DNA of 64,000 nt, taken from IMG/VR virus record IMGVR_UViG_3300044472_000055, positions 32,001 to 96,000 of that record; one strand, written 5' to 3'. A model generated the notes under the pieces. The model was not told the origin of the DNA and did no database searches. It was given only the letters and a program-made list of their open reading frames with translations. The translations under genes and the position numbers were made by a program. Each line of letters opens with the position of its first letter. Within the stretch, counting starts at the first letter, position 1. This stretch comes from a virus. This document shows positions 8,770 through 63,047 of this stretch, in pieces.

Positions 8770-8962
8770 GGAAAGAACGATGCACCACGTAGGCATTGTT
8801 CGTCAACGATTCTAAATACTTAGACACTACAGCGAAGATCGACACCTGCAAGATCCTGATTAGTAACCAACTGGCGATCTGCCGAATTGATCAATTCAGA
8901 TCAGGAAGTGCTAGTGTCTTCGCAGAGCTGGGGGCAGCTCGAACCGAAATCGCTGCCCATCT

Positions 8963-9502: not shown

Positions 9503-9532
9503 TCAGCCCCGGCGAGTAGTCTCAGAAGCACG

Positions 9533-10138
9533 ATGAATATTCGGCTCTGCGACTACTGCATGAAAGCCATCAACGAGAACGACACGTTGATGATCACGGT
9601 GAGCATCACGCCCAAGCTAGTGCGTGGTTTCGGCGGCGGTGTCCTCGATGCTCCATTCAATAGTGTCGACGTCGTTCCGCTCCCGTTTCCCATGCCGCTG
9701 TCACGAACCGAGAGCAAGCATTTCGATATGTGTATCGAGTGCGCTAAAGGCAAAGGGCTCGTCGAGACCGAGACGACAGTGAAAGCTATCGTTGGGCAGC
9801 TCACTCCCGAGGAGATCGAGAAGATCGAAAAAGGCACGTTCTGATAGGCTGCGGGCGTGAGCTGCAAGCACAACAACGTCGTCGCCGTGTTCACGCAAAG
9901 TGCAATCTGCGTCGATTGTGGGACGCCTGTGTGCCGCATTTGTCGAGGACAAACCGCGAAACCGACTTTGCCCTCGAATGAGATCTGCAACGTGTTTTCG
10001 TGGCAACACGCCCTCGAAACGAACACATGGCAGGGGCGTGCACTCAGCTACGAAGATGCGGCGCGTGCCTTGGGCAGCGCGCAGCTTCTATGCCGATACC
10101 GATCCCGTGATCTACGGGACGTGCTCGTCAACAATTGA
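9533..10138 (+). CDS. Two small CxxC-containing hypothetical genes (9533-9844, 9857-10138)
   Basis: CxxC pairs; each has its own promoter-like motif. Confidence 0.55.
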
Positions 10139-10222
10139 CCGGCTAGCAGGCCTTCTGCTATAGCCGGTGTAACAGAGTTACTTGGGTGTCCCAAGGACTA
10201 CTACAAAGGGAAAGGGAAGAAG

Positions 10223-12668: not shown

Positions 12669-13373
12669 TTACGCCGGGAAGTCCAGGGTGTCAGCCGCAG
12701 GAACCTCGACACCGAACTTGTCGTTGCCCGGTAGTGTCGTATCGAGCGCGATGAACTTCTCGCCGCCGAACTTCGGCAGGAGCGCGCCCGGATAGATGTG
12801 GCTCCAGTCGTCCCGCTTGCGCTCCTTCATCACACGCAGGCGTGGCGTGATGCCGTTGAGCGCGAGCAGCGTCGCCGTCAGAATCGACTGGTCGTCGCAG
12901 TCGCCGCCGCCGAATTCGAGCGTGCGAGAGCCCATCTGGTAGAGGTCGACACCTTCGACAGTGCCGTCCTCCCACGCGATCGGCGCGATGTCGCCCGTGT
13001 AGCGGACATTCTGCTTCACGTAGTCGTAGATCGCCTTCGCTTCGCAAAGGCCGTCACGCTCCGGGCAGTTACGCGTGATGTCGAGCGCGAGCTTGCGCAT
13101 GCGCCCGTCCTGCACACCCTCGCGAACGTAGCGCTGGATCGTCGCCAGTCGCTGCTCGATCGGCATGTCGTCCGCCTTGCGCAGCTGCGTGCGAAATCCG
13201 CCCGCGTTGCGCTCGCTGATGACGGGCGCTTCAGGTACCTGCTTCAGCGAGAGTCGGCCGAGTGCGCCTTGCTTTTGCTGGCGTCGAAAGAGGATCGCAC
13301 CACCGATGACCAAGCCCACGCCAGTGAGGCCGGTGAGCAACATAAGGCGATTGGTCTGCACGCCTGTCAGCAT
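12669..13373 (-). CDS. Transglutaminase-like cysteine protease with N-terminal TM (candidate maturation protease)
   Basis: IYDYVKQNVRY, GDCDD (Cys), WSHIYP (His), IALDTT (Asp) triad. Confidence 0.85.
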   Translation of the reverse strand: MLTGVQTNRLMLLTGLTGVGLVIGGAILFRRQQKQGALGRLSLKQVPEAPVISERNAGGFRTQLRKADDMPIEQRLATIQRYVREGVQDGRMRKLALDITRNCPERDGLCEAKAIYDYVKQNVRYTGDIAPIAWEDGTVEGVDLYQMGSRTLEFGGGDCDDQSILTATLLALNGITPRLRVMKERKRDDWSHIYPGALLPKFGGEKFIALDTTLPGNDKFGVEVPAADTLDFPA

Positions 13374-18618: not shown

Positions 18619-18918
18619 ATGGCCGAGGCCCGTCTCCCGACGTACAAGACTGCCGCAAGCGTTCTCGAACGAGACAAGGGCTCGGGCCTACGCCTCGCCG
18701 GATGGACGGTCGCACGCACGCTGCTGATCGCACCGCCAATGATGGTTGTCGGCGTTCCAGCGCGGCAGGCATTCATGGGTGCCGGCATTGCGTCGTTCTT
18801 CATCTCGATGCTCACGGTGCTTCGCGTGTTCGATGCGAGGTCTACGAACCTTGCCGGATTGAAGTACGGGAAGCGGCAGCACGCGCTCGCCGCTGGCCGA
18901 CGCCCCAAGCGACGATAA
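18619..18918 (+). CDS. Small membrane protein with LAG motif and basic tail
   Basis: TAGGCT-N6-ATG; ends NLAGLKYG...LAAGRRPKRR. Confidence 0.6.
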   Translation: MAEARLPTYKTAASVLERDKGSGLRLAGWTVARTLLIAPPMMVVGVPARQAFMGAGIASFFISMLTVLRVFDARSTNLAGLKYGKRQHALAAGRRPKRR

Positions 18919-19429
18919 TCGGCAGCGCCGGCCATAGTGCGCCGAGAAGCGCCCCAGAACCCGCCGCGATCGCGAGATCGCGCCATGCAAACCCATGCAC
19001 GCCTTCGTCCACGTCGAGGTCTTGCTTGCCAGGCACTGCCAGCAGACAGCCTGTGATAACCATCGCTGCGAGCACGGCGCCGATGATGTAGACGTCGACA
19101 CCAAGGAACCACGCACTACCGAGCGATAGTGCGATGGAGAAGATGAGCTGCACGATGAACGTGATCACAGGCGCTCCTTGCAGACCGGATGCGTGTACTG
19201 CCAGTGCTTGGAGTCCGCCGGACGGTACTGCCACCGTCCGATGCGCTCGTTAACCGAACGGATCACGATCCGACGCATTTTGCCGTCGCGTCCTCTGGTC
19301 GAACGACGCCGGCACTTACAGCGAAGACATTTCGCTGGACGTCCAGATCGGATCAACCCGTACTTGTGCGTACGGTAATACTTGAATCCGTCGTGTGCGT
19401 GGTCACCTTCGCGATCGCCCTCGTCGATA

Positions 19430-20223: not shown

Positions 20224-22413
20224 CTAGTGTGTCACAGGCCGCTTGCCGTTGCGAGCGTTTCGCGCAGGCGGCGGCTGCATCTGAACGACCTTGCCGTCGT
20301 TTTCGTCGTTCTCCGGATCGGCGTCGTCGTTGTCGTCATCCTCGTCGTCGTCGTCGTCATCATCGTCGTCATCATCAGGCGACGTGTTACCGGGCTTGCT
20401 CTGTCCGACGGCCGGCTTGTCGATACCGATCGTCTTCAGCTTGGCGATGACTGCCGTAACGACATCATCACGGAAGGCCTGCGTCGCATCGGGAAGCAGG
20501 ACATCCATGAAGTCTGCGTAGCGCTGCTGGTTGAGCAAATCGACCATCGCCGGAATCGGCAGGTTCTGCTGCATGACGATCTGCATCGCGGTCACGACGC
20601 CCGTCGCAGCCGTATCGACATCGATGCCTTGTTCGATTGGCGGCTCCTGGCGCAGACCGATGAGGTATGCCGTCGTGCCTTCACGCAGCTGCATCACTTC
20701 GCCGAGGAGGGGGCCGAACCATTCGAAGTCGGTACGCCCGAAACGCTTGGGCGAAAGCGGATCGGAATTGTCGACTGCCGGTGTCTGTGCGGCTGCGTTG
20801 CGCTTCCGCCGACGTCCGACGGGCGGGCCTGCGAGCTGTGCTTCGACGCGTGGAGGGGGCGGTGCATGCGTCTGTGCCTGCGGGTTGCGCATGGCTGCCT
20901 CGACCTCCATCGCGCGCACCTGCTGCTTGGTCATCTCGACCTGAGCCTGTGCGGCGACGGTGGCCTTCGCCTGCTGCGCGCCAACGTAGCGTTCCGCGAG
21001 ATCCTTGATGCCGGTCATGCCGTCACGGATCAGCTCGGCCGCGCCGCCGCCCTGCGGCTGCAGCTGAAGCGCCTGCTCCATCACGCGCGTCTGCATGTCG
21101 AGCACACCCGTCATATGACGGCTCATGCGCTCGGTGACCTGATCGACGGAGCTTTGTGACTCCTTCGTCAGCATCAGCAGATCGGTGGGCTTCATCATGA
21201 GGCCTTGCATGCGCTCGGCCTGCAGTTGGTGCTGATGCGCCAGATCCTTCTGAGACTGCGTCGTCTGCGCGATGATCTCCTTCACGAGAGTGAAGGCCGG
21301 ATCAGGGCCACGAGTCTCCGACGCCTTCGCGAGCGCCCCAAGCTGCGCTTCGAGACGACGATCGAGCGCCTCCATCTGACGCTTCGTGTCTTCTTGCTGC
21401 GCCTTGATCATGTCCCGAAGCGCTTGGTCACGGCGCTCCGATTCACGCTCACGACGCTCCTGCTCGCGCTCGCGCTGCTCGCGTTCGAGACGTGCCTCGG
21501 TCTGGCGCTGCTGCTCACGCAGGGCTTCCAGCTCGGGGTTCTTGGCCGACTGCGAGGCCTGCGCCGTCTGCGCCGTCGCCATGTTGGCGATCATCTGACG
21601 CAGCTCGGTCATCTGATTCTCGAACGTCTTGATCTTCTCGTTCGAGGCCGAACGCTCGCGTTCGAGCTGAGCCTCGTACTCGCGGCGCATGGCAGCTTCA
21701 CGTGCAGCCTGCAGCTCGGCTTCGAGCTTGCGCTGACGTTCTTCCATCGCCTTCTTTTCGTCCTCGGCCTTCCGCCGCTCGTCTTCGGTACGACGACGCT
21801 CGGCCTCGGCCTGCCATGCCTGTGCAGACTGCTGCGCCTGCTGGGCCTGGCCGTAGCCGCCTCCGTATACATTCGCGCCACCGCCGTAATACGGCGGGTA
21901 GGCTCCACCGCCGAAGAAGGCCTGCGGGGAGGGCGCCGGCTGCGCGGCCGGTTGAGGAGGGAGGCCGGGCGGGAATCCGCCGGGGAACGCGGGCGTGGTC
22001 ATCTGGCGCACCTGAGGGGGGCTGGGGGTGGGGGTAGGGCGAGATTGGGATGCCGCCGCTTCAGCGAGCGGCGGAGGAGTCTTCTCGGGGTACTCGGTGG
22101 GATTCCAGAACGGCTCCCACTTCATCACGATCGCAGGCGTCGACGAATCGGTGACGGTGACCTCGTAGTAGCCACCACCCGCCCATTCGTTGACGAGCCA
22201 TTGTTCGAGCCCGCGCACGTCCTCTTGCGTGAGGCCTGTGCCGGGCGGGCGCCCATCATCCGAGGGCGGCATTGGAATCGGCGTGCGTGTCGATCCCTTC
22301 CGCTTCTCGATGCGGACGGTAAGGGGCTCCGTCATGGAACCCAGTTTGGCGTCGTCGAACGTGCGTGCACCTTGCGGGGAGGGTCGGCCGGCCATTGGCG
22401 ACATACTGATCAC
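20224..22413 (-). CDS. Large Pro-rich/coiled-coil protein with poly-Asp tail
   Basis: 729 aa, long E/Q/R heptad region, DDDDDDDDDDEDDDN near C-terminus. Confidence 0.7.
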   Translation of the reverse strand: MISMSPMAGRPSPQGARTFDDAKLGSMTEPLTVRIEKRKGSTRTPIPMPPSDDGRPPGTGLTQEDVRGLEQWLVNEWAGGGYYEVTVTDSSTPAIVMKWEPFWNPTEYPEKTPPPLAEAAASQSRPTPTPSPPQVRQMTTPAFPGGFPPGLPPQPAAQPAPSPQAFFGGGAYPPYYGGGANVYGGGYGQAQQAQQSAQAWQAEAERRRTEDERRKAEDEKKAMEERQRKLEAELQAAREAAMRREYEAQLERERSASNEKIKTFENQMTELRQMIANMATAQTAQASQSAKNPELEALREQQRQTEARLEREQREREQERRERESERRDQALRDMIKAQQEDTKRQMEALDRRLEAQLGALAKASETRGPDPAFTLVKEIIAQTTQSQKDLAHQHQLQAERMQGLMMKPTDLLMLTKESQSSVDQVTERMSRHMTGVLDMQTRVMEQALQLQPQGGGAAELIRDGMTGIKDLAERYVGAQQAKATVAAQAQVEMTKQQVRAMEVEAAMRNPQAQTHAPPPPRVEAQLAGPPVGRRRKRNAAAQTPAVDNSDPLSPKRFGRTDFEWFGPLLGEVMQLREGTTAYLIGLRQEPPIEQGIDVDTAATGVVTAMQIVMQQNLPIPAMVDLLNQQRYADFMDVLLPDATQAFRDDVVTAVIAKLKTIGIDKPAVGQSKPGNTSPDDDDDDDDDDDEDDDNDDADPENDENDGKVVQMQPPPARNARNGKRPVTH

Positions 22414-22515
22414 TTATTGGATGGTCGGCAACAAATCCGTATACCAAGTCGCAACTCGTGGATAAGCGGGATCACTTTTCGCCGGATTATTTGACCGATC
22501 GGATTGTAGGGATTA

Positions 22516-24499
22516 GTGATCAACGACATGGGGAATCCACCAAACCACGACAACGACGACCCCGATAAGGTCGCGCTGTTCGATGGCCGCACCTTCGAGC
22601 GCACCCAAGGGTGCTGGAACTGCAAGCACTGGAGCGTCAAAGGTGCCGTCGATCGCTGGAGCGATCAGCGTCAGATGAACCTTCAGCGAGCGCTCACGAT
22701 CGCGCTCGAATCACCGCAGGGTGAAGACGACGAACGCGTCAAGAATATCAAGGGCATGGTCAACAAGCTCGACCACGAGATCGCGCGTGGATCGGCGGGA
22801 ACGTGCTCGGGAGGCGGCAAGACCGCTAACAACGACCCCGTCGGCGAGTACGTCGTCCACAACTTCCTTTGCGGGCAGTGGTCCGGCGCGTCCGGCGCAT
22901 CGATCGCACGTGGGGGTGCCAAAGCCGACAAGCTCCCCGAGGAGTTGCAGGAGCGGCTGGATGGTCCGAGGTCGACCAACAACACCAAGATGCCTCTCAT
23001 CCCCGGCGGCTCTCTCGTACGAAAGGGTGTGAGCTGATGGCCACTACAGGCACCCCAACCACCGACGAACACCCTGACGGCCCACGCTGGTCGGCTACCC
23101 CAGAAACCGGTTGGCTCATCGAGCTGAACGATCCGAGCGGTAGTCCAGGCGCATTATGGTGGAAGCCCGGCTGCTGGACCGCCGACTCCACAATCGCCGT
23201 GCGTTTCTCGCGCAAGTGCGACGCTGAAGCAGTCATTCGCGGCATGGGCTTCAAGAAAGCCATCGCAACGGAGCACCAATGGGGGTGAGCGAACGTTTCA
23301 CGTGGAGCCACGTAAGCCCAAACTGCGACAACAACTGCGATTGCTACGAAAAAGCAGCAGCAGCTGCGAGAGCACGTGAAGCCCTCAAGCAGATGACGAA
23401 GAAAGATCGCGCCGCTCGTGATGTTCGTCGCCCCAGGAGCCCACGCCGATGACAATTCTGCTGCTCTACCCCCTTCTCACGGCCGCGCTGTATTACCTCG
23501 GTAGTCGCGCGAAGATCACTTCGTGGTTATGGTCCAAGTATCCGCCTGCGTTGGCGTCTTTCATGGACTGTGCGGCCTGCACGGGTTTCTGGTACGGCTT
23601 CCTCGTCGAGTGTGTATACGGCGGGGCTGAGCCGATGTTCGCGCCCTACGCGTTGACCGAACCCTTCCGCGTCGGGTTGTCGGCGATCACCGTCGGCCTC
23701 TGCTCGTTAGTGCTGACACCAATCGTCGCAAACGTCATGCAGAACAGCCTGTTCATGCTCGGAACACCCTTACCCGAGACCCCTGGCGACACGACTGTCA
23801 GCCCCAGCGGTGATGGTACGAATCCATGAGCATCACAGGTGGCAGCATCACCCTCACGATCGACGATTACAACGGGCTGCAAAACGCGAAGAGCACGGCC
23901 GAGAACGAAGCTGCCAGCCTGAAGCGGCAGCTGATCGAGACGCGTCTCAATGCCGATCCTGCCGGGACCATTCGTGCTCTCACGGCAAGCCAGCGCCGCA
24001 TGCTGCACATCATTCGCTTCGCAGTCGGCAACCTGCCGCCCGAGAGCGTTCGCGGCTGGCCGACAGACGTACTCACGCAGGTGAGTGCAGACATCCTTCA
24101 GCTCGCAGACGCGACGACTGACGATGCCGCGTTTGCTGCTGAACTTCTCGTGTTCGTCGAGGACTGCAAGAAGGTCGATCGTTTTCGCGCCGCGCGCGAC
24201 GCAACCAAGCAGGTCGAAATCGTCGACATGCGTGCCGCTAAGCTGGAGAGTCCGACATGAGCATGGTCGCCGGAGTCGAAACCATTCGTGGGTTCTGTCC
24301 GATTCGTTGGGTCGGACGCAAAGGCCTCAGCGTCAAAGCGATCACCTACTGCAACGACGAAGTGAACGTTGCCGACGGTGTTCTTCAGGTGCCAGCGACG
24401 CTGCTCAAAGAAGGCGTCACAGCGTCGGTGCGCGATCACGGCAAGCTGATCAGCTGTTGCCCGAAATGCAAACAAGGGCTGCCTGCAGCGATGACGTAG
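22516..24499 (+). CDS. Hypothetical gene run (22516-23037, 23037-23288, 23449-23829, 23826-24260, 24257-24499)
   Basis: Coupled ORFs; 23449-23829 is a membrane protein with CAACTGFW. Confidence 0.55.
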
Positions 24500-24655
24500 C
24501 TGCGCAGAAAATTTGATCCGCAGAAACGCATCGTGGTACGACAACATCAAGATCGCGAGCTGACCCGACCGGCAGACGATCCTAGGCACCCTCCTCCTTG
24601 CCCCCAAGTCGTAGGAGGGTGCCCCACTACCTTTCAAATCGGGTAGCATCGTGGC

Positions 24656-24919
24656 GTGAGTTTCCCAAACGCAGGCCCACAGCTTCCCTCGCCGCAGCTT
24701 CCCGTCGGTCCGACGCCTGACGTGATGACGATGCCCCCTGCCGTCGCAAATCTCGGCTGCATGGGTTGCGGCCCAACGCTGCCGATGCTCGGTGAAGTCG
24801 TGAAACCGCCGATGCCGTTGTGGCTCAAGATCTTCGGCGTCATGCTCTTCTTCGGTGGCGTGTTCGGCCTCATGGCGATCACGAGCCGCAAGCAGCCTCG
24901 GTTCCCCACGCGCCCATGA
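24656..24919 (+). CDS. Small TM-anchored putative virion protein
   Basis: NLGCMG and PMLG motifs, PLWLK plus TM plus basic end. Confidence 0.55.
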   Translation: MSFPNAGPQLPSPQLPVGPTPDVMTMPPAVANLGCMGCGPTLPMLGEVVKPPMPLWLKIFGVMLFFGGVFGLMAITSRKQPRFPTRP

Positions 24920-25645
24920 AGTACGGCGAATCCAAATTCTCCGTCGGTGTCGGAAGCCAAGCCTTCCGCGATAACTACGAACGCATGTTCGGCACCGATC
25001 CGACGACTGATCTAGAACGCAATCTCATCAGAGCTGGCGTACGCACGCGCACCGAGGAATTCGCGCTGTGGGCGACGTTCGCGCAGCGCGTGTCGCTGAC
25101 GTTTCCATTTCAGGTCGACGTGCTTGTTTCCGAGAGCGATCGCGATCGCGTGAAGATGGGCGTCCAGTTGCACGTTCTCGATCGCGACACACGCGAACCG
25201 ATTACGGTACTCACACAACGTCACTGCGCTGCGTGGACGAACGACGCCGATGCGATCGAGATGCTGCGTGACCTCTTGGAGATCGCGCTCAAGCACGAGA
25301 CGAATGAATCACTCCGTCTCGACGGCAAGCTCGTCAATGACGTACACAGCATGCGTTAGTTCGTCTGACGCCGGTTGGCTTCCGTCTCGTGGTGCGCATC
25401 GGCGATGATCGATTCGAGTGCACTACGAATCAGCTCGTCGGGTAGACCATCCTCGATGCACATCTGCACGCCAAGACCGAACGTCGCCTCAGAGAGTAAC
25501 GTGACGACGAAGTCGGCTGCGAGATCAGGTGGCACCGATGCCGGTACGCGTGCGAGTAGCTCGTCGATCAACTCTTTGTGAGCCGCTTTGAGGCGCGTCG
25601 TGATGATCGCTGAGAGCTTCGCGATTTCTTCGAGAGCTGCCATTT

Positions 25646-26338
25646 CTAGTCGCCCCCAAAGATTTCATCCGCTGCTGCATCATCGATTCCGATCGGTTTG
25701 GGCTCCGCATTCCTCGTCGGAGCGACGGGCGTCGTGACCTCGTGCCTGGATAGCGCGAAGATCTCATCGTAGGTGCCGGCGTTGAGCGCGTGCTTCTTGA
25801 TCTCCTCGATGAGCTGCGCATCGGTGCCCTTGAACGGCGTACCAAGCTCACCTTTGCGCCAGCGCTCCATCTCGATCTCCAGCTCGCCGTACGGCAGCCC
25901 ATTGCTGAGGTAGTGCTCGCGACGACGCCACGCGGCCTCCTCAGCCGACGGGAACGTGCCGATCGAATGCATGCTCTCGCCGCTGGTCACCATCGCGCGG
26001 AAGCCCTTGCCGTTGGCGTACACGCCGACGAAACCGCTCTTCGTTTTGGTGCTGCGGTGCAGGAGGCTGAGGTTGATCGGCTTGGCCTCGTTGAGCATGC
26101 CGAAGTTCTTCTCTCGCGCGCTCGTGACAGCACGTTCGAAGTCGCCCGAGAGGAACCCAACGTCGAACTTGAGGATCCGCTGATCCACCTGAAGGAGGAG
26201 CATTCGGAAGGCGACCTCGGGCTTCACCCCCAAATCGGAAGCGAGCTGGACGCAGACCTTCCACGTAGCAAGTGGAACGTCCACTCGAAGGGCTACCGAA
26301 CCACTAGGAAGTGAGGTCAGCCGGGGGGCTTTGGGCAT
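25646..26338 (-). CDS. AP2-domain DNA-binding protein
   Basis: SGFVGVY..GKGFRAMV...SIGTFPSAEEAAWRR is the AP2 signature; no HNH domain seen; start codon uncertain. Confidence 0.7.
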   Translation of the reverse strand: MPKAPRLTSLPSGSVALRVDVPLATWKVCVQLASDLGVKPEVAFRMLLLQVDQRILKFDVGFLSGDFERAVTSAREKNFGMLNEAKPINLSLLHRSTKTKSGFVGVYANGKGFRAMVTSGESMHSIGTFPSAEEAAWRRREHYLSNGLPYGELEIEMERWRKGELGTPFKGTDAQLIEEIKKHALNAGTYDEIFALSRHEVTTPVAPTRNAEPKPIGIDDAAADEIFGGD

Positions 26339-26689
26339 GCTTTACGTTAACAATCGACCCTTACACTTACTAGAGGATCGCCCCGAACAATGGGCTAGAT
26401 TACCGATCCGCAAGGCGTCTCCGAAAGTGGATCCGCCAAACGTAGCCCATCACACGTTAGACCCCCTTACTCCGCCGAAAATTTTTGTGAGATTCCGACG
26501 TTTCCCGTGTACAGCGCGGCTATATTCTTTTTAGGACATAGCGTTTGTACTTCTTGATATCAAGAAGTTCAAAAGGGGTAAGGGTCTAAAGAATAGAACA
26601 GTTGCTTATCACCGTTTTCCGGAAGATAAGTCAGGCCCCTTACGTTTGAAGGAGCGTTCAGTCTAGACGCCTAACCGCGCGAAAGATCT
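26339..26689. promoter_or_regulatory. AT-rich non-coding region with CCCTTAC repeats and 20-bp palindrome
   Basis: CCCTTAC at 26358, 26464, 26637 and inverted at 26578; ACTTCTTGATATCAAGAAGT 26549-26568. Confidence 0.55.
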
Positions 26690-28399: not shown

Positions 28400-29878
28400 T
28401 TACGGTGTCACGGGGCAGCATTCGAGCTGCACACGAGCCACTACAGAGACGTTCGCGGTGGCAGCGTCCGCTCCCGTGGCGAATTGAATCTGAAGGCCGA
28501 GACCACCGGTCGGGTTCGCCGTGATCGTCCACTGTGCAACGGGCGTCGCATGACCGATGATTGACTGCGCACCAGACGCGATGAGAACCGTCGATCCCGC
28601 TGTCGTACGCACGATGAATTGACGCTGAATCGCAGCGCTGATCGCACCCGCTGCACCGCCACCGGCAACCGCCGTCACCGTGACGGTGTACGCGCGGTCA
28701 TCAACGAGGGCGATAGCGGTACTTCCACCACCATCACCAAAGTTGAGCGACGTCGCAGCGATCGGAGCGTTGGAAGGCCCGAGCTTCATGACGATCATGG
28801 TGCTCTGCGCATCACCGTCAGCGAGGAAGCGGCCAGACGCGTGAGCACGTTCGCCATCATTGGTGGCGCGTGCACGCACACCCGTGGCACTGGAGAAGCT
28901 CGCGCTCGCCGTGTTCGATCCGCCCTCGGCGTGGCTCGCGTAGCCGCTCGCGACCGTGCTGTCACCTTCGGCGTGCGAGCGCTGACCGCTTGCGAGTGTG
29001 CCAACGCCTTCAGCGTGCGCTCCCGTAGCAGTCGCCTGCGTGGTCTGCCCCTCCGCGTGAGATGCACTGCCCGACGCTGTCGTGCCGTTACCTTCGGCGT
29101 GCGCCGTTTGATTCGAGGCAGTCGTGCTCAGACCTTCGGCGTGCGCGTAGTTCGCGGTGGCCTGCGAGCTTTGGCCTTCGGCGTGCGAGTAGTCACCTTG
29201 TGCAACCGTGTTACGGCCTACGGCATGCGCAGCTGCTCCGCTTGCCTGTGCACCATCGCCAGTGGCGAACGCAGCACTGCCTGACGCCACGTTGTCGTAG
29301 CCGCCCGGAATCGACGCGCCGTCACCGGACGCCGTGTTGCCGTAGCCGCCCGCAACCGTCGCGTATTCGTCCGTCGCAGCGTTGTCATCGCCGCCGCCGA
29401 TGGTCGAGTAGTTCGCGGTGGCACCGGGCGCCGCACCGCCCGTATTGCTGCCGAGGTTAGTGATACCCGCCTGAGTGTTGTCGATGGGTGACTGATCCGA
29501 AGCACGATCGCTACGGATGTTGACCTTATCGGCTGCGACAGCGTCATCGAAGATGACAGCCGGATCACCGCCGCCGCTACCAGCGCTGCCAGTAGAGGCC
29601 GCGAAGGGCACCGGGCTCAGTGTGGCGCTCGTGCTACCGAGCGCACGTTCGACAGAATGCTCGCGCTTGACCCACACACGAATGGTTGCCTGCGCGCCGC
29701 TGTTGTTGGTCACACTGACATTCGTCGCGTCAGCTGTGATCCCGAATCCTGCGACGTCGCCCGCAAGATAGTCGGGTGTCGTCGCAGTACCGTTGATGTT
29801 GATGTCGTGGGCTTGCGCGACGGTTGCGCCATCTGCAACGTCCGTGAACGTGAGGATCTGAACCAGACGAGTTGCCAT
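28400..29878 (-). CDS. Spike/fibre protein with beta-helix repeats
   Basis: Tandem 14-aa [SA]HAEG..T.A.G repeats and IGGG..N.A repeats (YadA/Hep_Hag-like). Confidence 0.75.
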   Translation of the reverse strand: MATRLVQILTFTDVADGATVAQAHDININGTATTPDYLAGDVAGFGITADATNVSVTNNSGAQATIRVWVKREHSVERALGSTSATLSPVPFAASTGSAGSGGGDPAVIFDDAVAADKVNIRSDRASDQSPIDNTQAGITNLGSNTGGAAPGATANYSTIGGGDDNAATDEYATVAGGYGNTASGDGASIPGGYDNVASGSAAFATGDGAQASGAAAHAVGRNTVAQGDYSHAEGQSSQATANYAHAEGLSTTASNQTAHAEGNGTTASGSASHAEGQTTQATATGAHAEGVGTLASGQRSHAEGDSTVASGYASHAEGGSNTASASFSSATGVRARATNDGERAHASGRFLADGDAQSTMIVMKLGPSNAPIAATSLNFGDGGGSTAIALVDDRAYTVTVTAVAGGGAAGAISAAIQRQFIVRTTAGSTVLIASGAQSIIGHATPVAQWTITANPTGGLGLQIQFATGADAATANVSVVARVQLECCPVTP

Positions 29879-29920
29879 GTAGCAACTCTACTAGAATCGA
29901 TTGCACTGCATCTAACTTTG

Positions 29921-29993
29921 CGCGCGCTGTCGGATTCGAACCGACGACCCACGGATTATAAAGTCCGCAGCTCTACCGCTGAGCTAAACGCGC
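29921..29993 (-). tRNA. tRNA with 8-nt anticodon loop CUUUAUAA (Ile-UAU-like plus one U)
   Basis: Acceptor GCGCGTT/AGCGCGC, D arm GCTC-AGCGGTA-GAGC, anticodon stem GCGGA/TCCGT, T arm GTCGG-TTCGAAT-CCGAC. Confidence 0.85.
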
Positions 29994-55093: not shown

Positions 55094-55534
55094 ATGAATC
55101 GACCAACAACCGTCATCAACATGAACACCGCCCGCTCCGCCGTGCAGGAGGCCAAGCGAGAGGGCCGCTACGTGCCGATCGATCGCACGACGATCTGGGG
55201 CAATCCGTTCTATCTCGGCACCGATGGAAACCGTGACGAGGTGATCAAGAAGTTCGAGGCGTACCTGCTCGGCAACGAGGTGTTGATGCGTCAGGTGTGG
55301 ACGCTACGTGGCAAGGTGCTCGGCTGCCACTGCGCACCGATGCGATGCCATGGCGAAGTGCTCGCACGTCTCGCTGACGCGACGAGCGTGTCGACGGCGT
55401 CCGATAGTGGAACCGTCTCGACAAAGATCCCGCACGAGTACCTATCGGCCGGTGATGCGCCCGGCGCCGACGGTGATCGACCATTCACCGGTTGCTACAT
55501 CTGCGGCGGCTCGCGGAAGGATCATGTGAAGTAG
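55094..55534 (+). CDS. DUF4326 family protein
   Basis: IDR..IWGNPF, LRGKVLGCHCAP..CHGEVL. Confidence 0.85.
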   Translation: MNRPTTVINMNTARSAVQEAKREGRYVPIDRTTIWGNPFYLGTDGNRDEVIKKFEAYLLGNEVLMRQVWTLRGKVLGCHCAPMRCHGEVLARLADATSVSTASDSGTVSTKIPHEYLSAGDAPGADGDRPFTGCYICGGSRKDHVK

Positions 55535-55720
55535 TCGACTACGATCTCGTCATTGCGTAGCGATGCCCTGCGCGGCTTTGCGACGCTATGCCTAGCACTG
55601 TGTGGCACTGCGCTGCGCTGCTCGGCATTCCACTCCAAGGTCACCCTCGTCTAGCTAACTTGACGAGCTGTTTCGCCTATGGGACGCTCTCCTCATCCCA
55701 ATCACTACGGGAGAGGAAAT

Positions 55721-55813
55721 ATGGCAAAGAAGAAGCACTGCAAGTTCGGCAAGGTCTCGCGCGGTCGCCGCAAGGGCCAGTGTCGCAAGTCGCGCAAGAC
55801 CAAGCGCAAGTAA
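55721..55813 (+). CDS. 30-aa protamine-like peptide
   Basis: GAGAGGAA RBS; MAKKKHCKFGKVSRGRRKGQCRKSRKTKRK (16 of 30 K/R). Confidence 0.7.
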   Translation: MAKKKHCKFGKVSRGRRKGQCRKSRKTKRK

Positions 55814-55906
55814 GGTCGACGCGAACGTGATCGCCGTCGAGTGCATCTCCCGTAGGTAGCGCTCGGCGGCGATTTCGTTTCAACCACCCTAAGACGAGGT
55901 CATCTC

Positions 55907-58900
55907 ATGCAGGTCTTGAAAACGTTCGAGCAGACTTGGCAATTCAAGCCCGGTGACCCGAACCAGTATCAGCGCGAAGCTTACGTCGGCGTTCCCGGCG
56001 GCTACGGCTCCTTCTACTTCGACCGCGTCCCGAACACCGCGACCCTCGGCAACGTTCGTGGCCTCGGCTTCTGGTCGAGCATCCCTTCGCTCGGTCAGGC
56101 CGCGATCGTCGCGGTGCTCGCCACGGCAGCGGGCTACCTCGGCATGAAGCATCTCGGCCCGACGGTGAAGCAGAAGTTCGGTCTCTCGGGCGCCCGGCGC
56201 CGTCGGCGGTAACCGCCATGGCCCTCATCATGGGTCTGGAAGGGCTGCGCGGAAACCGACTCCTCGGTGTTCGCGGGCTCGGGCTCATTCCGCCGGCACG
56301 TGCGACGACGCTCGCCGGCCTCTACGGCACGTTCGATATCATCAAGCGCCACCCACTTTTGATCCTTACCGGCATCATCGCAGGTGGCTGGTGGGCAGCT
56401 TCAAAGCTCGACGGCCCCAAGGGCTCGGCAGACGCGTGGGGCTCGCAGCGTATGGCGCAGTCACGCGCCCGTGCCCTCAGTGGAGCGCAACAGACGAAGA
56501 TCGGGAGCGTGACGGTGGTTCGTGATGGTCGTCGCGTGTACACCATGCGCAACGGCAAGGTCCGCACTGACCGTACGCACGACGATGAGGCCACGGCACG
56601 CCACGATTACAAAGCGACAATCGACTACTACGCGGAGCCGTAATGAGCAAAAGCAGCAAGCGCACTGAAGCCTCTCGTCTCGCGACTCGTCGTCGCTTCG
56701 AGGAAGCGGCGCCTCCACGCCACACGTCGATCATCGTGCGCGGCCCCAAGAAGAGCGCGAAGCGCGCGGCCGCTCGCCATGGCATCTCGACCGAGAGCTG
56801 CTACGAGCAGGGCAAGGACGTGCAGTGCTTCGTCCCCTGCACCCCGAGCACGAGCGATCGCCTCGACAAGTGGTACGGCAAGGGTCCTCGCAATCGCAGC
56901 ACGACGCGGACGTGGGCCGCGCCCGGCACGCTGCTCTACGTCGGCCGCTGTCCGGCACCGGGGCTCAGCGGCGCACGTCGTCGCAAGCGCAGGTAGCCCG
57001 CGCATCCGGCTTTCAAGCCGTGTAGGCTCGGAGCATGGCGAAAACACGCGCATGCGCAGCACCCGGAACAGTCTATGAAATGCACGGCGGGCGTCTGCAA
57101 AAGACCTCAATCGACAAGACGTACTGCGGCAGTATCGAGAAGGTCACTAGCATCAAACATGGTGATTTCCGCGTGTCACAGCATGTTGTCGTGATCTCCG
57201 CTGGTGGCCGAAAGTTGTGGGTGCCCGTCAGCCGTATCAAGGCTGGGAAGGCACGCCACAAGCGCTGAGCGTAGGTAGCTCGCGCATCCGGCTTTCAAGC
57301 CGTGTAGGCTTGAGGGTATGGCAAAGCGCAGCTGGAAGAGGGTCCACAAGTCGAGTGGAGCCACGGTTATCGAGCGGGGCCCCAAGGGCGCTGCACGCTG
57401 GGCTGTGTCCTGCAACGGTGATCATGATCGTGGTTCTTCGACGAGCGTTGCTCGCGCAAAGACCGCAGCAACCCGCGCCGCGAAACGCATGAAGAAGGGC
57501 TAGTTCAATGAAGGCGATCCAAACGAAGTATTCCGGCCCGACGAACACGCGCGGCTCGCGCGTTGTCGCGACCGATGGTGATGGACACCGCGTGTCTGTG
57601 CCGTTCGATGATTCGACCGGCGGAACGCAAGGCGCGCATCGTAGGGCTGCGCTTGCTCTGTGCAAGAAGCTGGACTGGAACGGCTGCGAACGTCTCGTCG
57701 GTGGTGCACTCGCGAAGGGTTACGCCTTCGTGTTCGTACCGTCTGATTGCAGGTGCGCACGGCCGCTCGAAGGCTTGCGCGGAACACGAGGTCGTCGTCA
57801 GAAAGGACGTCGCTAGCCATGGCCACGCCGAAGAAGAACATCGAGTGGAACAAGGTGCCCGCGACCGCGTGCATCGAAGATCGCGGCAAGTACTACGTCG
57901 CGCACATGGGCCGTACGTCGGCCGTCGTGTTCTGGGGCAGCCAGGATGCGCGTCAGGCGCAGGCCACGCTCTGGGCGCTCGCGCAGGGCAGCAAGAACCA
58001 GCGCATCTGCGGTGATCTCTTCCGCAAGACGCGGCCGCTTCCCGGCCTGCGTGGTGCGCGCCGTCGTCGGAGGAAGTGATCATGGCGAAACAACGTTTTC
58101 GAGCAATCGGTCCCAACGAAGATCATCACGCCGGTTCTTTTCAGCGTGCGCTTCATCTCGCGACGGAGCGCTCGCTCGCGCTACGCAGCACGTATGAGGT
58201 GGTTCGCTGCGTCCCCGACAAGCGCCATCCTGAAGGAGAGTCGTGCACGGGGTTGGCTCGCGTGACGGTGCGGCGCACGGGGGAAGCACGTCCCGCCAAG
58301 CGCCGCCGCCGTGAGGGAGACGAATAGTCGTGGCGAAGAAATGCAAACCGACTGCACGTCAGATCTGCTCGGCGTCTACCGCCGACAGTCGTGGCGTCTT
58401 CATGCGTGGTGACGTTCGTACGGCAGCTGGTTCGGTGTGCATCGCCGACTGGATGCTTCGCCACGGTCACTTCGAGAAAGCTGGTCGTGCGGCTGGCGGG
58501 CGTCCACTGTACATCATGACGCGCAAGGGTCGCCGTATGTCCGAGAAGGCGTGCGAGACGGTCTACGGACGTCGCGGAAGGAAGTAGCTCGTGCCGAAGA
58601 AGCCCAAGTTCGAGAAGCTCTCGATCAACATGGAGCGTCGCGGTGAGCTGCGCTACGCCACGGCGTACAACGCACGTGACGCCGCGAAGATCGCGACGAA
58701 AGCTGCAAAGCAGGGCTGGGATACGACGGTGCAGTCGTTCAGCAGCCTCGGCACGAAGCGCGGCATTTACATGGAGTGCCACTCGTCGAAGGTCAGCGCC
58801 GGACGTGATCCGGGTTTTCTTGCGAAGGCTGTCGCACGCTGCAAGCTGAGCCCCGCATTCAAGAAGCGCCTGCGAGGTCGCTGATGCGTAAGGGTCCGCT

Positions 58901-59738
58901 GACCAACCGCGAGGTCAAAGCCGTGACCAGCGCAGTTCTAGACGAAGTCCTGATGGGCTCGAAATCGAAGGTGGTAGGCTCGGGCATGGCGAAGAAGCGG
59001 AAGAGGGTTGGTCTCGGTTCGATGAAGCTGGTTGATGCCATTCGTCCGGGCTGCCGCGTGACGATCGTCAACCGCTTCGGTCAACAGCGCACCGGTACGG
59101 CCGTCATGCGTGGCCCACACGGTTGGGTGTTGAACATGGGCGGCAAGCACGGCACACCGGGCATCGCGACCGACGACAACACCAACCGCGTCGTCTGCAA
59201 GAAGAGGTAGGTCATGGCGAAGAGGAAGAAGACCCCACATCACGGCACGTGTTACTGCGCAGCTCAGCGCGATGCGGCGGGCGTCACCAACATGGTGTGC
59301 GCTCGCTCAAAGAAACACGTGCGTCGTCTCGCGTCGCGCCTCGGGCGTGGCTACGACAAGAAGCACGGGCGCTATGGCAAGGTCTTCCGCGCCGTCCCCA
59401 CCAACTGCTAGGAGATCGTCATCATGCCTCGCAAGCCGCTACCGAAGAGTCCGTGTGATTGGGATCAGGGCTCTACTCGCCGTATCTATGAAGCACTCGG
59501 GCTCAACAGCACGGGCGCGAACAAGATCCCCAAGAACATGCATGGTCGCTACAAGGTCGACGGTTACACTGTCATCGTGAAGCGGTCGGCCCCCGGTCAA
59601 CGCGGAACCGGCAAGCATCGCGTCTTCGTCGACATCGGCGGGCGAGATATTCCGGCTGGACGCGTGTATCAAGCCGCGTGTCAGCGGTACAAGCTGCGTC
59701 AGAAGCGTCGTCGCGCCGCTCGCGCCGCTCGCCGCTAG
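55907..59738 (+). CDS. Cluster of small basic Cys-containing genes (55907-56212, 56218-56643, 56643-56996, 57035-57268, 57318-57503, 57508-57816, 57819-58079, 58076-58327, 58330-58587, 58591-58884, 58986-59210, 59214-59411, 59424-59738)
   Basis: Tightly packed ORFs, basic termini, recurrent L[SR]G-[AT]-R-rich tails. Confidence 0.7.
56991..57310 (+). repeat. 38-bp direct repeat (56991-57028, 57273-57310) carrying a promoter-like TAGGCT
   Basis: AGGTAGC[CT]CGCGCATCCGGCTTTCAAGCCGTGTAGGCT, one mismatch, 6-7 nt before ATG in both copies. Confidence 0.85.
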
Positions 59739-60095
59739 TCCTTGTAGCGCCCGCCGCTGGGCACTACCGGCTCCTCGCGCTCACGGATGTTGATCGTGAT
59801 GCCATCGGGAGGCTCACCGCTTACGGTGACGGCCTTCCCTTGTGTGAGCTGCGGGTATGTCTTCATGGCCCACTCGTGCAAGATCGAGCGGATGTCATGC
59901 GCGGACAGCTTGATCTCGTGCTTCATGTGTCGTTAGGCGGGACGTAGAAGTCCGACGAGGAATGGGGTTGTGGCGGCACTTCGTCGATACGCGATGGTGT
60001 CACGCACCGTCCGCACTTGAGGCGCTGGTCGCCGACGAGCGCGAACCACGTCTTGAACACGCGGCGCCCACATACTTCGCAAGTAGTCGTCAGTG

Positions 60096-60818
60096 TCATC
60101 GCGTCGACACCGTTTCAGGCACGGGGGTCCATGCTGTGATGGCGCGTTCGAGCGGTAGATGCACGACTTCGATGCCGTACTTGCTCGCAAGATCGTTGAT
60201 GTCGATCTGCTTGCCGCCGACGTACACGGCGCCGTAGACGATGCGCTTGATGCCGACTTGCAGTACAGCCATGAAGCAGTCGCGGCACGTACTCGCCGTC
60301 GTGTAGAGCGTGCTGCCTTCGAGACGAACGCCGTGACGCGCTGCCGTGATGATCGCGTTCTTCTCGGCGTGGATTGTTCGTACGCAGCTCTGGCGCCCGT
60401 TGATCTCGACGAGGTCATGGCCGACTTCGTCACACGATGGTAGACCGCTCGGTGCACCGCCGTAGCCCGTCGACAGGATGCGATGATCGGGTGAGACCAC
60501 GACCGCGCCGATGCGGGCGCGATCGCAGCTCATGCGCAGTGACACGGCGTCGGCGATGACCATGAAGTACGTGTCCCATTCGGGACGTGTACGAGGCTTG
60601 GGGTCGGGCTTGCGCCCGAGCAGCTCGATCAGTTTCGGCCGATTCGGGATGTCTCCGGCTAGGATCTCACGACAGAGCTTCAGCAACTCAGGTACGTCTG
60701 AGAAACGGATCGATTCACCCTGCAGCGCGCACACGCCGCAGAGCAGTCGGCCACCATCACCGACGTAGCGAGGGTAGTTACCGGTTCGATCGCCACAGCC
60801 ATCACAGTAGGTCGCCAT
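60096..60818 (-). CDS. dCMP deaminase (ComEB-like) with N-terminal Zn ribbon
   Basis: RPEWDTYFM, SCDR..IGAV, TGY.G.P, HAEKNA, TC.DC. Confidence 0.88.
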   Translation of the reverse strand: MATYCDGCGDRTGNYPRYVGDGGRLLCGVCALQGESIRFSDVPELLKLCREILAGDIPNRPKLIELLGRKPDPKPRTRPEWDTYFMVIADAVSLRMSCDRARIGAVVVSPDHRILSTGYGGAPSGLPSCDEVGHDLVEINGRQSCVRTIHAEKNAIITAARHGVRLEGSTLYTTASTCRDCFMAVLQVGIKRIVYGAVYVGGKQIDINDLASKYGIEVVHLPLERAITAWTPVPETVSTR

Positions 60819-61160
60819 CGATAGCAGGCTATATGCTGGGGCTGACACTCAGGTGCCCGGGGGCGGAAGCGGGTTTTTGGGCATCATCCGCCACAGCTCA
60901 CCGTACGTAATCTCGCCGTCGTAGTAGAGCACCGTGAGGAAATCGAGGGCCTCGTTCTGCTCGTCGGTGAGCTTGTGGCAGCCCTCGTTGCTCATATCAG
61001 CCGTTGACAGGATCTGCCGGCAATACTCGATAGCGACAGCGGTCTTGAGGCGAGCTAGTTCATCGAATCGCATGCCTCGTAAGTCGTTCGAGGCTCAACG
61101 GTTGTGACAGGAGCCGAAACGCCAACGATTTCGCCATTCAGCTCTGGTAGGCTCGGGGGC

Positions 61161-62366
61161 ATGCCCTACGCCATTATCGACCCTTCGGGGGCTGTGCGAA
61201 CCGTCGTCGACGGCGATGCACAGGAGGCTGTCCACGTTGCTTCGCAGTTCAGCCCATTCGTGCAGGTCGAGGATGACCTTCGCCACGATGCCGAAGCGCT
61301 CGGTGGCGCGTTGGGTGACATCGATCTTGGTCGCGTCGGCTTCGAGAATCGCCCGCGTCTTGCTTTTGAACGCTCGGGCTTGCCGCATATCGATTACGCC
61401 GAGGCGATGGCGATGAGCGCGGCCGAAGCACACCAACGGCTGCTGCCTTTCTTCCCCACCGAGCGGTTCCGGAAGTCGGGCGAGCGCATTGCGGTCAACA
61501 CCTACGCGACCCCGCGTAGCATGGCCGACGCACTGCTCGGTCAGAACTACAAAACGGCGAAGAAGGACTCCGATCAACGGCCTGCTGACGTGCAGGGACT
61601 CAGCCTTGTCCCACAGCGCTACATGCACGACTTGCGGCCGGGCTCGATCCCGAACCACATCAATCTGTGCGTCGGCGCCAGCAAGGCGTGCGTGCAGTCG
61701 TGCCTCGTGTATTCGGGACACAACACGATCGATCCGTACAACCTCGTCGTGAAGATCGCTCGCACGCAGGCGCTGATCGGCGAGCCGCTCGCGTTTGTTC
61801 GTCTGCTCGGTGAGAGCATCACACGCTTCCAGGCCTCTGCGAAGCGGGCCAGCTACGAGCCCTACGTGCGGCTCAACGTGTTCTCGGACATCCCGTGGGA
61901 GCTGGTGTGCCCCGGCCTGTTTGCGGCATTCTCAAACCTTCAGTTCTACGATTACACGAAGGTCGAGGGGCGCAATCCGCCGAGTAACTACGACATCACG
62001 TTCTCGTTCAGCGGCGTGAACCAAGAGCAGGTCAACTTCGAGATTGGCCGTGGGCGTCGTATCGCTGTCGTGTTCATTCCGCCCGAACGCATCCCTGCCG
62101 AAGGACGTCCACGCGGCGCAGGGTTGCCGACGTCGTTCTTGGGCCTTCCGGTCATCGATGGTGATGTCAGTGACGTGCGTCCTCGTGATGCAGCGCCTGC
62201 CATCGTTGGCCTGCGCTGGAAGGTCCCGATGGGGCGCCAGAAGGAATCGATCGCGATGGCCAAGCAGCTGGCGTTTGCCGTGCCTGTTACAGTAGTGGAC
62301 GGGCAGCTGATCGCCGCCACGAGTGCGCGGCAGGAGCCCATCGCTGACGCGGATGAGGAGAACTGA
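61161..62366 (+). CDS. Gp88-like (radical-SAM-related) protein
   Basis: NLCVGASKACVQSCL, VRLNVFSDI, QFYDYTK, NYDITFS, DGD.SD.R..D, IVGLRWK. Confidence 0.75.
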   Translation: MPYAIIDPSGAVRTVVDGDAQEAVHVASQFSPFVQVEDDLRHDAEALGGALGDIDLGRVGFENRPRLAFERSGLPHIDYAEAMAMSAAEAHQRLLPFFPTERFRKSGERIAVNTYATPRSMADALLGQNYKTAKKDSDQRPADVQGLSLVPQRYMHDLRPGSIPNHINLCVGASKACVQSCLVYSGHNTIDPYNLVVKIARTQALIGEPLAFVRLLGESITRFQASAKRASYEPYVRLNVFSDIPWELVCPGLFAAFSNLQFYDYTKVEGRNPPSNYDITFSFSGVNQEQVNFEIGRGRRIAVVFIPPERIPAEGRPRGAGLPTSFLGLPVIDGDVSDVRPRDAAPAIVGLRWKVPMGRQKESIAMAKQLAFAVPVTVVDGQLIAATSARQEPIADADEEN

Positions 62367-62368
62367 TC

Positions 62369-62596
62369 ATGGCGAAGTGCCGTCGAATGACCACCAAAGA
62401 GCTTGCCAAGCAGCTAGGCGAGAAGAAGGGCCGCAAGCTCTCCGCTGAGGAACTGGCAAGCATCAAAGTGATGCCGCCGCAGTTCATCTGTGAAGGCGCC
62501 GCACCCGAAGGGATGGCGCTTCCTGACGCGCCCGCTCGTCCGGCAGGCAAGGTCGGCTTCGACCTATCTGGTGCGAAGAAACGCCGTGCCAGCTAG
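62369..62596 (+). CDS. Small protein with LSG-basic tail
   Basis: Ends FDLSGAKKRRAS. Confidence 0.6.
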   Translation: MAKCRRMTTKELAKQLGEKKGRKLSAEELASIKVMPPQFICEGAAPEGMALPDAPARPAGKVGFDLSGAKKRRAS

Positions 62597-63047
62597 CTGC
62601 CCACGTCTCGTCTTCAAGACGATCAAGTACGGACGCGAGGACGTCCGTGCGCGTCGCATCGAAGCACGAGACACGAACAAGCAATTCATGGGCGCCGTGA
62701 CGGTAACATCGTGGGGCAACGGGCTCGCGCCACGCGTCACGCACATCGAGGTCAACGAAGACGCCCGCAAGTGCGGCATCGGCACCAAGCTCTACGAGCA
62801 AGCCGCGAAGGTCTCGTGCAAGACGTTCAAACAGCCGCTGCACAGCGACATCGAACGATCGAAGGCTGCCGACGGGTTCTGGCAGAAGCAGGTGCGGAAG
62901 GGCCGCGCAACGTGCGTGAAGCCTCAAGTGCCTTTCAACGAAGACGCCTTCGACGAGACACCTACGCAAGGCCGCAGTGGTTGCTACCAGTACGCCCTCA
63001 AACAGTGCCCGGCACCGGCTTCGCTTGCGGGTCGTCGCCGCCGCTGA
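62586..63047 (+). CDS. GNAT acetyltransferase with LAG-RRRR tail
   Basis: VTHIEVNEDARKCGIGTKLYE motif A, A.GFWQK motif B. Confidence 0.75.
   Translation: MPASCPRLVFKTIKYGREDVRARRIEARDTNKQFMGAVTVTSWGNGLAPRVTHIEVNEDARKCGIGTKLYEQAAKVSCKTFKQPLHSDIERSKAADGFWQKQVRKGRATCVKPQVPFNEDAFDETPTQGRSGCYQYALKQCPAPASLAGRRRR

Follow-up and report, generated by a model that had tools for sequence, protein, structure and literature searches.

The viral DNA considered here (the window) is a 64,000-nt stretch spanning bases 32001-96000 of a single 121,351-bp virus record (61% GC, classed linear, CheckV completeness 88%). Between 55.7 and 63.1 kb it encodes small basic proteins, several of which end in one and the same short tail, i.e., a hydrophobic position that is almost invariably Leu, a variable residue, and Gly, in many cases followed by Ala or Thr, and then 4-8 Arg/Lys. 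Comparison with metagenomic relatives indicates that this tail is a portable, selectively maintained C-terminal module. As to its function, we lean tentatively towards a nucleic-acid or packaging address, a reading that makes no commitment as to whether the tail is cleaved.

A shared C-terminal tail on unrelated small proteins

All eight C-termini quoted in the preliminary description of this window are present where it placed them, including those at 57816 (GLRGTRGRRQKGRR), 58884 (RLRGR), and 18918 (LAAGRRPKRR). With a loose motif ([LMI]xG, then 3-12 residues at the C-terminus, at least half of them R/K), such ends are found in 7/209 called proteins, six of them at 55.9-63.0 kb, versus 2/1010 uncalled open reading frames (ORFs) of at least 60 amino acids (aa); with a strict motif (L[SR]G[AT][RK]), the figures are 5/209 and 0/1010. 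The anticipated enrichment is thus borne out, with tails commoner in called proteins than in uncalled ORFs, and clustered. Gene counts are approximate, as calls were made with a home-made codon log-odds caller (209 genes in the record). For the 16 plus-strand proteins encoded at 55.7-63.1 kb, the count of L[SAR]G[AT] is 6 versus 0.4 +/- 0.6 after shuffling (0/300 shuffles reach 6), and that of GL[SR]G is 5 versus 0.2 +/- 0.4 (0/300 reach 5).

The tail codons differ between tagged genes; the tails are therefore no DNA repeat, and their conservation lies at the protein level. No BLASTP similarity was detected among the bodies at E <= 0.01, in keeping with the original claim that these are unrelated. 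Taken together, the sequences indicate that the tail pattern is real, non-random, and kept at the protein level. A proposed "N-terminal version" of the tag, MAKKRKRVGLG at 58986, fared less well: it falls within ORF 58884-59210, whose initial ~27 residues are conserved in two relatives (metagenome contig L009 and protein P0111), and it would thus be an internal segment or an alternative start in this genome. Genuine N-terminal leaders consisting of a basic run and (G)LG are found in homologs of the GNAT-like protein encoded at 62586-63047. A literature search returned no description of an LxG-plus-basic tail.

The tagged genes lie mostly within a cassette of 13 consecutive plus-strand genes (55721-59738; 30-141 aa, isoelectric points [pI] of 10.4-12.0), followed by two more basic genes at 62369-63047; another tagged end lies at 18918. 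The individual features are as follows.

55721-55813 (+): first cassette gene, 30-aa peptide MAKKKHCKFG..., 53% Lys/Arg, two Cys
55907-56212 (+): 101-aa protein with a hydrophobic segment; C-terminus GLSGARRRRR, LSG encoded at 56183-56191
56218-56643 (+): 141-aa protein; internal ALSGA (56476-56484), then 52 extra residues
56643-56996 (+): 117-aa basic protein; C-terminus CPAPGLSGARRRKRR (GLSGARRRKRR)
57035-57268 (+): small basic protein of 77 or 62 aa (start at 57035 or 57080, respectively); ends KAGKARHKR; 43-nt promoter-like repeat upstream
57318-57503 (+): 61-aa basic protein MAKRSWKRVHK... without LxG tail; second 43-nt repeat copy upstream; L009 ortholog at 1274-1534
57508-57816 (+): 102-aa phrog_3199-like domain (phrog_3199, E 6.7e-12) plus the add-on SDCRCARPLEGLRGTRGRRQKGRR
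57819-58079 (+): 86-aa basic protein; C-terminus RPLPGLRGARRRRRK (GLRGARRRRRK)
58330-58587 (+): 85-aa basic protein; ends YGRRGRK; coding score low (5.2-6.9)
58591-58884 (+): 97-aa basic protein; ends KKRLRGR
58884-59210 (+): 108-aa protein; leader MRKGPLTNREVKA...LMGS, then VVGSG-MAKKRKRVGLGS, then body; ends VCKKR
59214-59411 (+): gene call for a 65-aa basic protein, MAKRKKTPHH...
59424-59738 (+): 104-aa basic protein, last of the 13-gene run; ends KLRQKRRRAARAARR
62369-62596 (+): 75-aa protein with a helix-turn-helix (HTH)-like N-terminus (weak match, HARE-HTH, E 0.094); ends FDLSGAKKRRAS (DLSGAKKRRAS); 11-nt overlap with the start of the next gene
62586-63047 (+): 153-aa GNAT-like module; ends CPAPASLAGRRRR (SLAGRRRR)
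18619-18918 (+): possible 99-aa protein with two transmembrane segments, in the structural-looking region; ends ALAAGRRPKRR; coding score 7.2; not chosen by the gene caller because of its overlap with 18842-19168 (-)

Searches of the cassette bodies against Pfam and PHROG returned only the phrog_3199 match and weak GNAT matches, and the ESM Atlas gave no usable lead for 57819-58079 or 56643-56996. The two 43-nt intergenic copies (56986-57028 and 57268-57310) are 95% identical; each terminates with GTGTAGGCT, 6-7 nt upstream of the ATG of 57035 or 57318, respectively. This element, present in only two copies in the 121-kb record, resembles an extended -10 promoter for leaderless or near-leaderless mRNAs.

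Presence and absence of the tail in relatives

The proposal that the tail is a modular add-on, absent from homologs elsewhere, is well supported for the phrog_3199-like body, as 75/78 complete metagenome homologs end right after the YAFVF core and are tail-less. The tail is confined to the closest relatives of this body, with ...CxCxxPLEG plus a basic run found in P0002 (85% identity), P0003 (on L009; 69% identity), and a homolog on L010. Two other families keep it, which points to selection on the add-on. In family A5 (56643-56996), [LI]xG[ATL] plus a basic run (RRRKRR) is present in 7/7 members down to 42% identity, with the Gly invariant, and one member (P0033) has retained the tail after a 44-aa insertion. 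In family A4 (the first 15 homologs of the GNAT-like protein, down to ~40% identity), the ends are basic in 15/15 and contain LxG in 10/15.

L009 is a 3.4-kb metagenome contig syntenic with the window at 55.7-59.2 kb. It encodes orthologs of the 30-aa peptide (MAKRKCKFGIVKRGKRKGQC..., in frame 3 at the start of the contig), of the proteins starting at 55907, 56218, 56643, 57318, 57508, and 57819, and of the leader of 58884. Five consecutive ORFs are tagged here, with the ends SLHGLRRRRRR, DLSGLGRKRRRR, PLEGPRRKRSRR, SIGGVGARKRRR, and SLAGSKRRRK; tags are thus found in 5/53 ORFs of at least 40 aa on L009 versus 14/4971 in the other 79 loci. The motif itself turns over, since two L009 orthologs keep basic ends without Leu-x-Gly: that of 55907-56212 (57% identity, C-terminus KIARLRR) and that of 57819-58079 (61 aa, C-terminus KRRAQKGCKK).

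The family of the GNAT-like module is large, with 945 clusters (50% identity) at E <= 1e-3 and 662 at E <= 1e-10 in an exhaustive profile search. The first 15 homologs all close with CPAPxSL(A/S)(G) plus a basic run. Among the best 150 of the 945, 128 are single modules (<=200 aa); these end in [LIMV]x[GA] plus a basic run (68), in a basic run only (43), or in neither (17), such that the end is basic in 111/128. In a 116-row alignment (A6), the counts of which lean high given that 22 proteins of >200 aa and ~25 single-module matches picked by eye, many of them odd-ended, were left out, Leu147 and Cys141 are each conserved in 115/116 rows and Gly149 in 81/116, with at least three R/K in 96/116. 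Arg/Lys make up 70% of the A6 tails, whose median length is 6, and acidic residues account for only 4/745 positions; by a count made by eye, ~17/116 rows also carry an N-terminal mirror of the tail, i.e., Met, a basic run, and (G)LG.

A GNAT fold was predicted for 62586-63047 by AlphaFold2 (AF2) from the 116-row alignment (predicted local distance difference test [pLDDT] of 93.7), with CPAPASLAG at ~93 and the last three residues dropping to 75. The best Foldseek matches of this model in the PDB are GNATs (SpeG, GCN5, and others; E 8e-5, TM-score 0.47-0.55), and the Pfam GNAT matches, which fall below their cut-offs in 62586-63047, rise above them in relatives. In the model, Leu-x-Gly is thus the structural end of the domain in the GNAT-like family, and its retention at internal junctions of GNAT-like proteins is for this reason no evidence for a protease site.

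The 22 longer matches (>200 aa) among the best 150 are tandem modules or fusions, among them the following.

P0035: three GNAT-like modules, a transmembrane segment, and SLT (E 7.5e-23)
P0174: GNAT-like module, SLEG-SRRRP-LG, a transmembrane segment, and M23 (E 8.9e-13)
P0158: GNAT-like module, SLRGLG, and ART-PolyVal (E 4.2e-8), with further RGLGA-type junctions
P0144: GLRG-RRMKKTRRKKR-GLG between two domains
P0131: LEG-ARRRP-LG connector

A further extension is found on L089, where the GNAT-like module runs past CPAPSDLSG into ~190 additional residues; the gene has an M23 gene as a neighbour, together with homologs of window genes 20224-24260, whereas the window copy at 62.6 kb lies away from the structural-looking region. 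A different tag-like element is the 26-aa N-terminal leader (MRKGPLTNREVKA..LDE.LMG-S) common to 58884-59210, L009:3130-3423, and P0111, where it precedes three different bodies, that of P0111 being GNAT-like. This leader, which we take to be comparable to double-glycine-type leader peptides, may be a second portable tag.

Where genes have been fused or split in this lineage, the events fall exactly at the tags. The L009 ortholog of 56218-56643 terminates at the ALSGA position with SLHGLRRRRRR* and is followed by a separate gene, so that one gene in the window corresponds to two on L009; the same conclusion is drawn from the L089 extension, the LxG-basic-xLG connectors, and the moved 26-aa leader. 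A stricter rule of one tail per polypeptide was tried and dropped as too weak, with at least three R/K in the last 8 residues of 12/22 long relatives versus 31/193 in the background.

A proposed address label and its alternatives

Were the tail a nucleic-acid or packaging address, the cassette would constitute a polyvalent-protein-like array of effector or DNA-associated modules, broken into separate genes, a comparison made because the GNAT-like architectures match those of polyvalent proteins of phages and conjugative elements. Leu-x-Gly would mark the module boundary, and the polybasic run would anchor each polypeptide on nucleic acid, the viral genome being the most plausible target. A polypeptide anchored in this way would then travel with the viral genome into the particle and/or the next cell, with the tail serving as a positively charged label at the C-terminus, much as in substrates of VirB/D4 type IV secretion. 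We infer nucleic-acid binding, packaging, and delivery for the tailed proteins; delivery with the genome has indirect support for the GNAT-like body only, because its fusions with SLT, with M23 behind a transmembrane segment, and with ART-PolyVal resemble polyvalent proteins.

Polyvalent arrays, as presented in the main text of Iyer et al. 2017 (PMC5512222), combine GNAT, ART, peptidoglycan hydrolase, and peptidase domains, and the prediction is that they enter particles or are transferred together with DNA, and that peptidases within the arrays process them; GNATs are found there beside ARTs, with solo versions among late genes and with packaging and processing again predicted. An LxG-plus-polybasic end signature is not described in that main text, and the supplements of the article may hold alignments showing such a tail. 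The likeness concerns the GNAT-like module only, the relatives of which carry ART-PolyVal, SLT, and M23; unlike in polyvalent proteins, the modules here are mostly separate small genes, and MPTase-PolyVal was not found in the record.

In phage T4, internal proteins carry a short capsid-addressing terminal peptide (CTS) that is removed by the prohead protease at Leu/Ile-x-Glu. The CTS is N-terminal and not polybasic, whereas the tag described here lies at the C-terminus, some homologs having an N-terminal mirror of it, and its polybasic run follows Leu-x-Gly. The resemblance lies in a locus of diverse small basic proteins that share only this short peptide, which is able to carry foreign proteins (PMC3012670). 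In VirB/D4 systems, too, unrelated effectors that accompany DNA or move beside it bear a short Arg-rich signal at the C-terminus that is not cleaved off, as outlined in PMC10025392. There, however, the signal is read by the coupling protein of a conjugation-type machine; neither such a machine nor a coupling ATPase was identified in the record, and the arginine spacing differs.

As an address label, the tail would provide a ~10-residue, sequence-defined handle for loading proteins onto a phage genome or into particles, from a lineage unrelated to T4; to our knowledge, the only well-used phage cargo tag comes from T4. Delivered effectors in dark-matter phage genomes would also become recognisable from their ends alone. 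The tail would thereby connect three subjects that have until now been handled separately: polyvalent proteins of phages and plasmids, positively charged C-terminal signals in DNA-coupled secretion, and adenovirus-like basic clip-off peptides.

Several findings weigh against such an address. The cassette bodies have a net charge of +4 to +20 even without tails, such that the tail may simply reinforce a broad tendency to bind nucleic acid, and the cassette lies among replication and nucleotide-metabolism genes, outside the structural-looking region. The motif is looser than a strict recognition site would be, with Leu-x-Gly absent from the two L009 orthologs and Gly missing in 5/15 members of family A4. 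Of ~12 multi-domain relatives that end in a domain other than the GNAT-like one, only 3-4 have a basic tail, and no tagged cassette occurs within +/-50 kb in a more distant relative of the virus carried by a metagenome-assembled genome (MAG). Finally, Terminase_6N, Phage_capsid, and Pox_A32 were not found in six-frame searches of the record, which is an estimated 88% complete.

Among the alternatives, the one to which we give most room, while still deeming it unlikely, is that these are intracellular binders of nucleic acid (acting on the nucleoid, RNA, the ribosome, or in host take-over) that are never packaged, their tails being uncleaved extensions that raise affinity for polyanions. The high pI of 13 consecutive proteins and the positive charge of the bodies themselves would fit this, as would the position of the cassette after a helicase, polymerase, and methylase block on the same strand, the weak HTH-like match at the N-terminus of 62369-62596, and the presence of two genes with their own promoter-like element (TAGGCT 6-7 nt before the ATG). 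It does not account, however, for the specific Leu-x-Gly-Ala/Thr found ahead of the run on bodies that are unrelated, nor for the fusion elsewhere of an enzyme-like GNAT module bearing this end to SLT or M23 behind transmembrane segments. Far less probable still, and already disfavoured, is that the tails are by-products without shared function, arising from GC-rich coding (Arg codons), Shine-Dalgarno (SD) sequences that serve downstream genes but sit in gene ends, positive-inside rules behind transmembrane segments, or local gene conversion between neighbours. Individual ends do invite such accounts: 58079 closes with CGG AGG AAG TGA immediately ahead of the next ATG, 57816 closes with AAA GGA CGT CGC TAG, a hydrophobic segment precedes the tail in 55907-56212, and neighbouring tails can be near-identical (RPLEGLRGT and RPLPGLRGA; GLSGARRR twice). 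Yet such ends occur in only 2/1010 uncalled ORFs of the same GC-rich DNA, the tail codons are mostly CGN and not SD-like, 56996 and 63047 have no coupled downstream gene, most tagged proteins lack a transmembrane segment, and tails are retained across ~40% identity in two families.

The preliminary description had itself proposed a clip-off tag, whereby a viral cysteine protease (the 12669-13373 product or another) would cut at or just after Leu-x-Gly in maturation, freeing cargo and an oligo-arginine peptide; we regard this as improbable, though by no means as remote as a by-product. It draws on a specific short motif before the basic run on unrelated bodies, on the occurrence of the motif at fusion junctions with basic spacers fenced on both sides (LxG-basic-xLG in P0144, P0131, and P0174), and on the mirror leaders (basic run plus GLG) at the N-termini of ~17/116 aligned members. 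In the GNAT-like model, however, the high-confidence placement of CPAPASLAG within the fold (pLDDT 93) explains internal retention without a protease, and Gly is missing in 35/116 aligned members. Slightly more doubtful again is an extended version, in which unrelated effector modules would be separated, like beads, by oligo-arginine spacers fenced by Leu-x-Gly on one side and (G)LG on the other, and the spacers would be excised in the particle by a viral papain- or transglutaminase-like protease; this would free effectors along with oligo-Arg peptides that condense or slide on the genome, as a bacterial-virus counterpart of adenovirus core processing. Such a system, if real, would have a modular layout, could be moved to any cargo, and would be common among environmental phages (GNAT-like module in at least 945 clusters at 50% identity).

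The protease candidate named in the preliminary description is the following.

12669-13373 (-): 234-aa protein with a Gly-rich N-terminal transmembrane segment and a transglutaminase-like core (Transglut_core, PF01841, E 2.7e-6, 28.1 bits against a cut-off of 23)

Its GDCDD, SHIY, and LDTT motifs occur in order, with the Cys/His/Asp triad assigned by eye, which favours cleavage. No PHROG, NCBIfam, or PDB sequence match was found for the protein, no homolog was detected in the MAG relative, and a single-sequence AF2 model of residues 40-234 is unusable (pLDDT 35). The product may instead be a lysis enzyme: by its Gly-rich N-terminal transmembrane segment, we take it to be equally compatible with an enzyme of the signal-anchor-release type. 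On L089, the domain that follows the GNAT-like module contains GACYY...HHGW...VDLT and was read as papain- or transglutaminase-like by motif only, as a further point for cleavage. It is retained as no more than a motif-level impression: searches of Pfam, NCBIfam, and PDB sequences did not support a peptidase here, and the domain compares with 12669-13373 at a BLASTP E of only 2.7. The same goes for a peptidase reading of the N-terminal parts of P0043, P0131, and P0087, with no support from the same three sources. In six-frame searches of the record at E <= 0.1, Peptidase_C5 (PF00770) and C48/Ulp1 (PF02902) gave 0 matches; C39 and S78 were also not found in the record, and S77 (PF03420) gave no match either there or in any control genome, such that this last search is uninformative.

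The adenovirus protease consensus is (M/I/L)XGX-G or (M/I/L)XGG-X, and papain-like viral proteases and C39 leader peptidases typically cut after a small P1 residue preceded by Gly at P2. The fit of the window tails (L-S-G-A-R, L-R-G-A-R, L-R-G-T-R, L-S-G-A-K, and L-A-G-R-R) to the adenovirus consensus is only partial, as Leu at P4 and Gly at P2 are present but 0 window tails have Gly at P1' or Gly-Gly; two L009 tails (LSGL-G and IGGV-G) do fit the type-1 pattern. In structural-region proteins, [LMI]xG[LMAV]G is only weakly enriched (11 versus 6.2, with 13/300 shuffles reaching 11), which counts against a clip-off tag. What the analogy retains is the processing of adenovirus basic core proteins next to basic runs and, in pVI/pVIc, a basic DNA-binding C-terminal peptide behind a hydrophobic-x-Gly-x site, where cleavage at IVGL|G frees GVQSLKRRRCF, as given in PMC4246237. 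Adenain, in contrast, belongs to clan CE, whereas C5/C48 were not found here, no window tail has a P1' Gly, and the host is bacterial.

Two further kinds of terminal signal were considered and discarded. A ubiquitin-like end (Leu-Arg-Gly, JAB-processed) was dropped, as PF14464 (Prok-JAB), searched for in all six frames of the record, gave no match at E <= 0.1 and the bodies were not shown to be beta-grasp. Lipobox, sortase, and CTERM signals were rejected, there being no Cys after Leu-x-Gly and no transmembrane segment between the motif and the basic run.

The virus and its genomic context

The virus is of interest in itself, as a record of at least 121 kb with a relative in Gemmatimonadota and with a structural-looking half in which the proteins tested have no Pfam or PHROG match. 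It encodes a family A DNA polymerase with a UDG domain, SNF2 and UvrD helicases, a dCMP deaminase, a Gp88-like protein, rIIA, and rIIB, along with three tRNA-like genes. One of the latter (window 29920-29993, -) was given an anticodon of four letters (ttat) by ARAGORN. The DNA polymerase is at most 28% identical to those of GenBank phages, among which no close relative was found. Scans of IMG/VR with UvrD, alignment A2, and alignment A4 as queries found no relative, the Gp88-like query retrieved distant loci only, without tagged ORFs, and a scan of genome contigs with alignment A2 gave no match.

A relative of the virus is carried by a Gemmatimonadota MAG chromosome (L089 and its flanks), which makes Gemmatimonadota the probable host phylum. 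The relative has homologs of the polymerase, the SNF2 helicase, and the products of 33354-34970, 38164-39231, 40186-41091, 20224-24260, 28400-29878, and 30224-30430. Its polymerase homolog (L090, ~3584-7831) matches in four separate tblastn pieces with gaps and may hold inteins, introns, or frameshifts.

In the structural-looking half, a credible Pfam match was obtained for 0/10 proteins tested, and the 661-aa, 723-aa, and 548-aa proteins of the structural-looking part (window 1-30000, and contig 8704-10689) matched nothing in PHROG or Pfam. Many small proteins of this half close with a transmembrane segment and a basic stub. Upstream of the window, at L002:254-6639 (contig 20254-26639), lie 6-7 tandem paralogs of ~113-444 aa with 28-60% identity between copies; many end in ..AGTF or ..GSF, and the two tested have no Pfam or PHROG match.

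Promoter-like sequences recur elsewhere in the record. TGnTAGGCT or TAGCGT-like boxes lie just upstream of 61161, 16940, 68893, and others, and a GTCAGCCCC(N)GCG box stands ~17-25 nt before a TA-rich hexamer upstream of 6040, 9560, 33354(-), and the genes at window -15101 and 65987(-). The latter box may represent a second promoter class.

Pieces of window 55500-63300 recur, with 0-1 differences each and no informative rearrangement, on contigs of four further sediment metagenome runs, which come from four other studies (X2-X5). Judging from these near-identical pieces, the same virus strain is widespread at low coverage.

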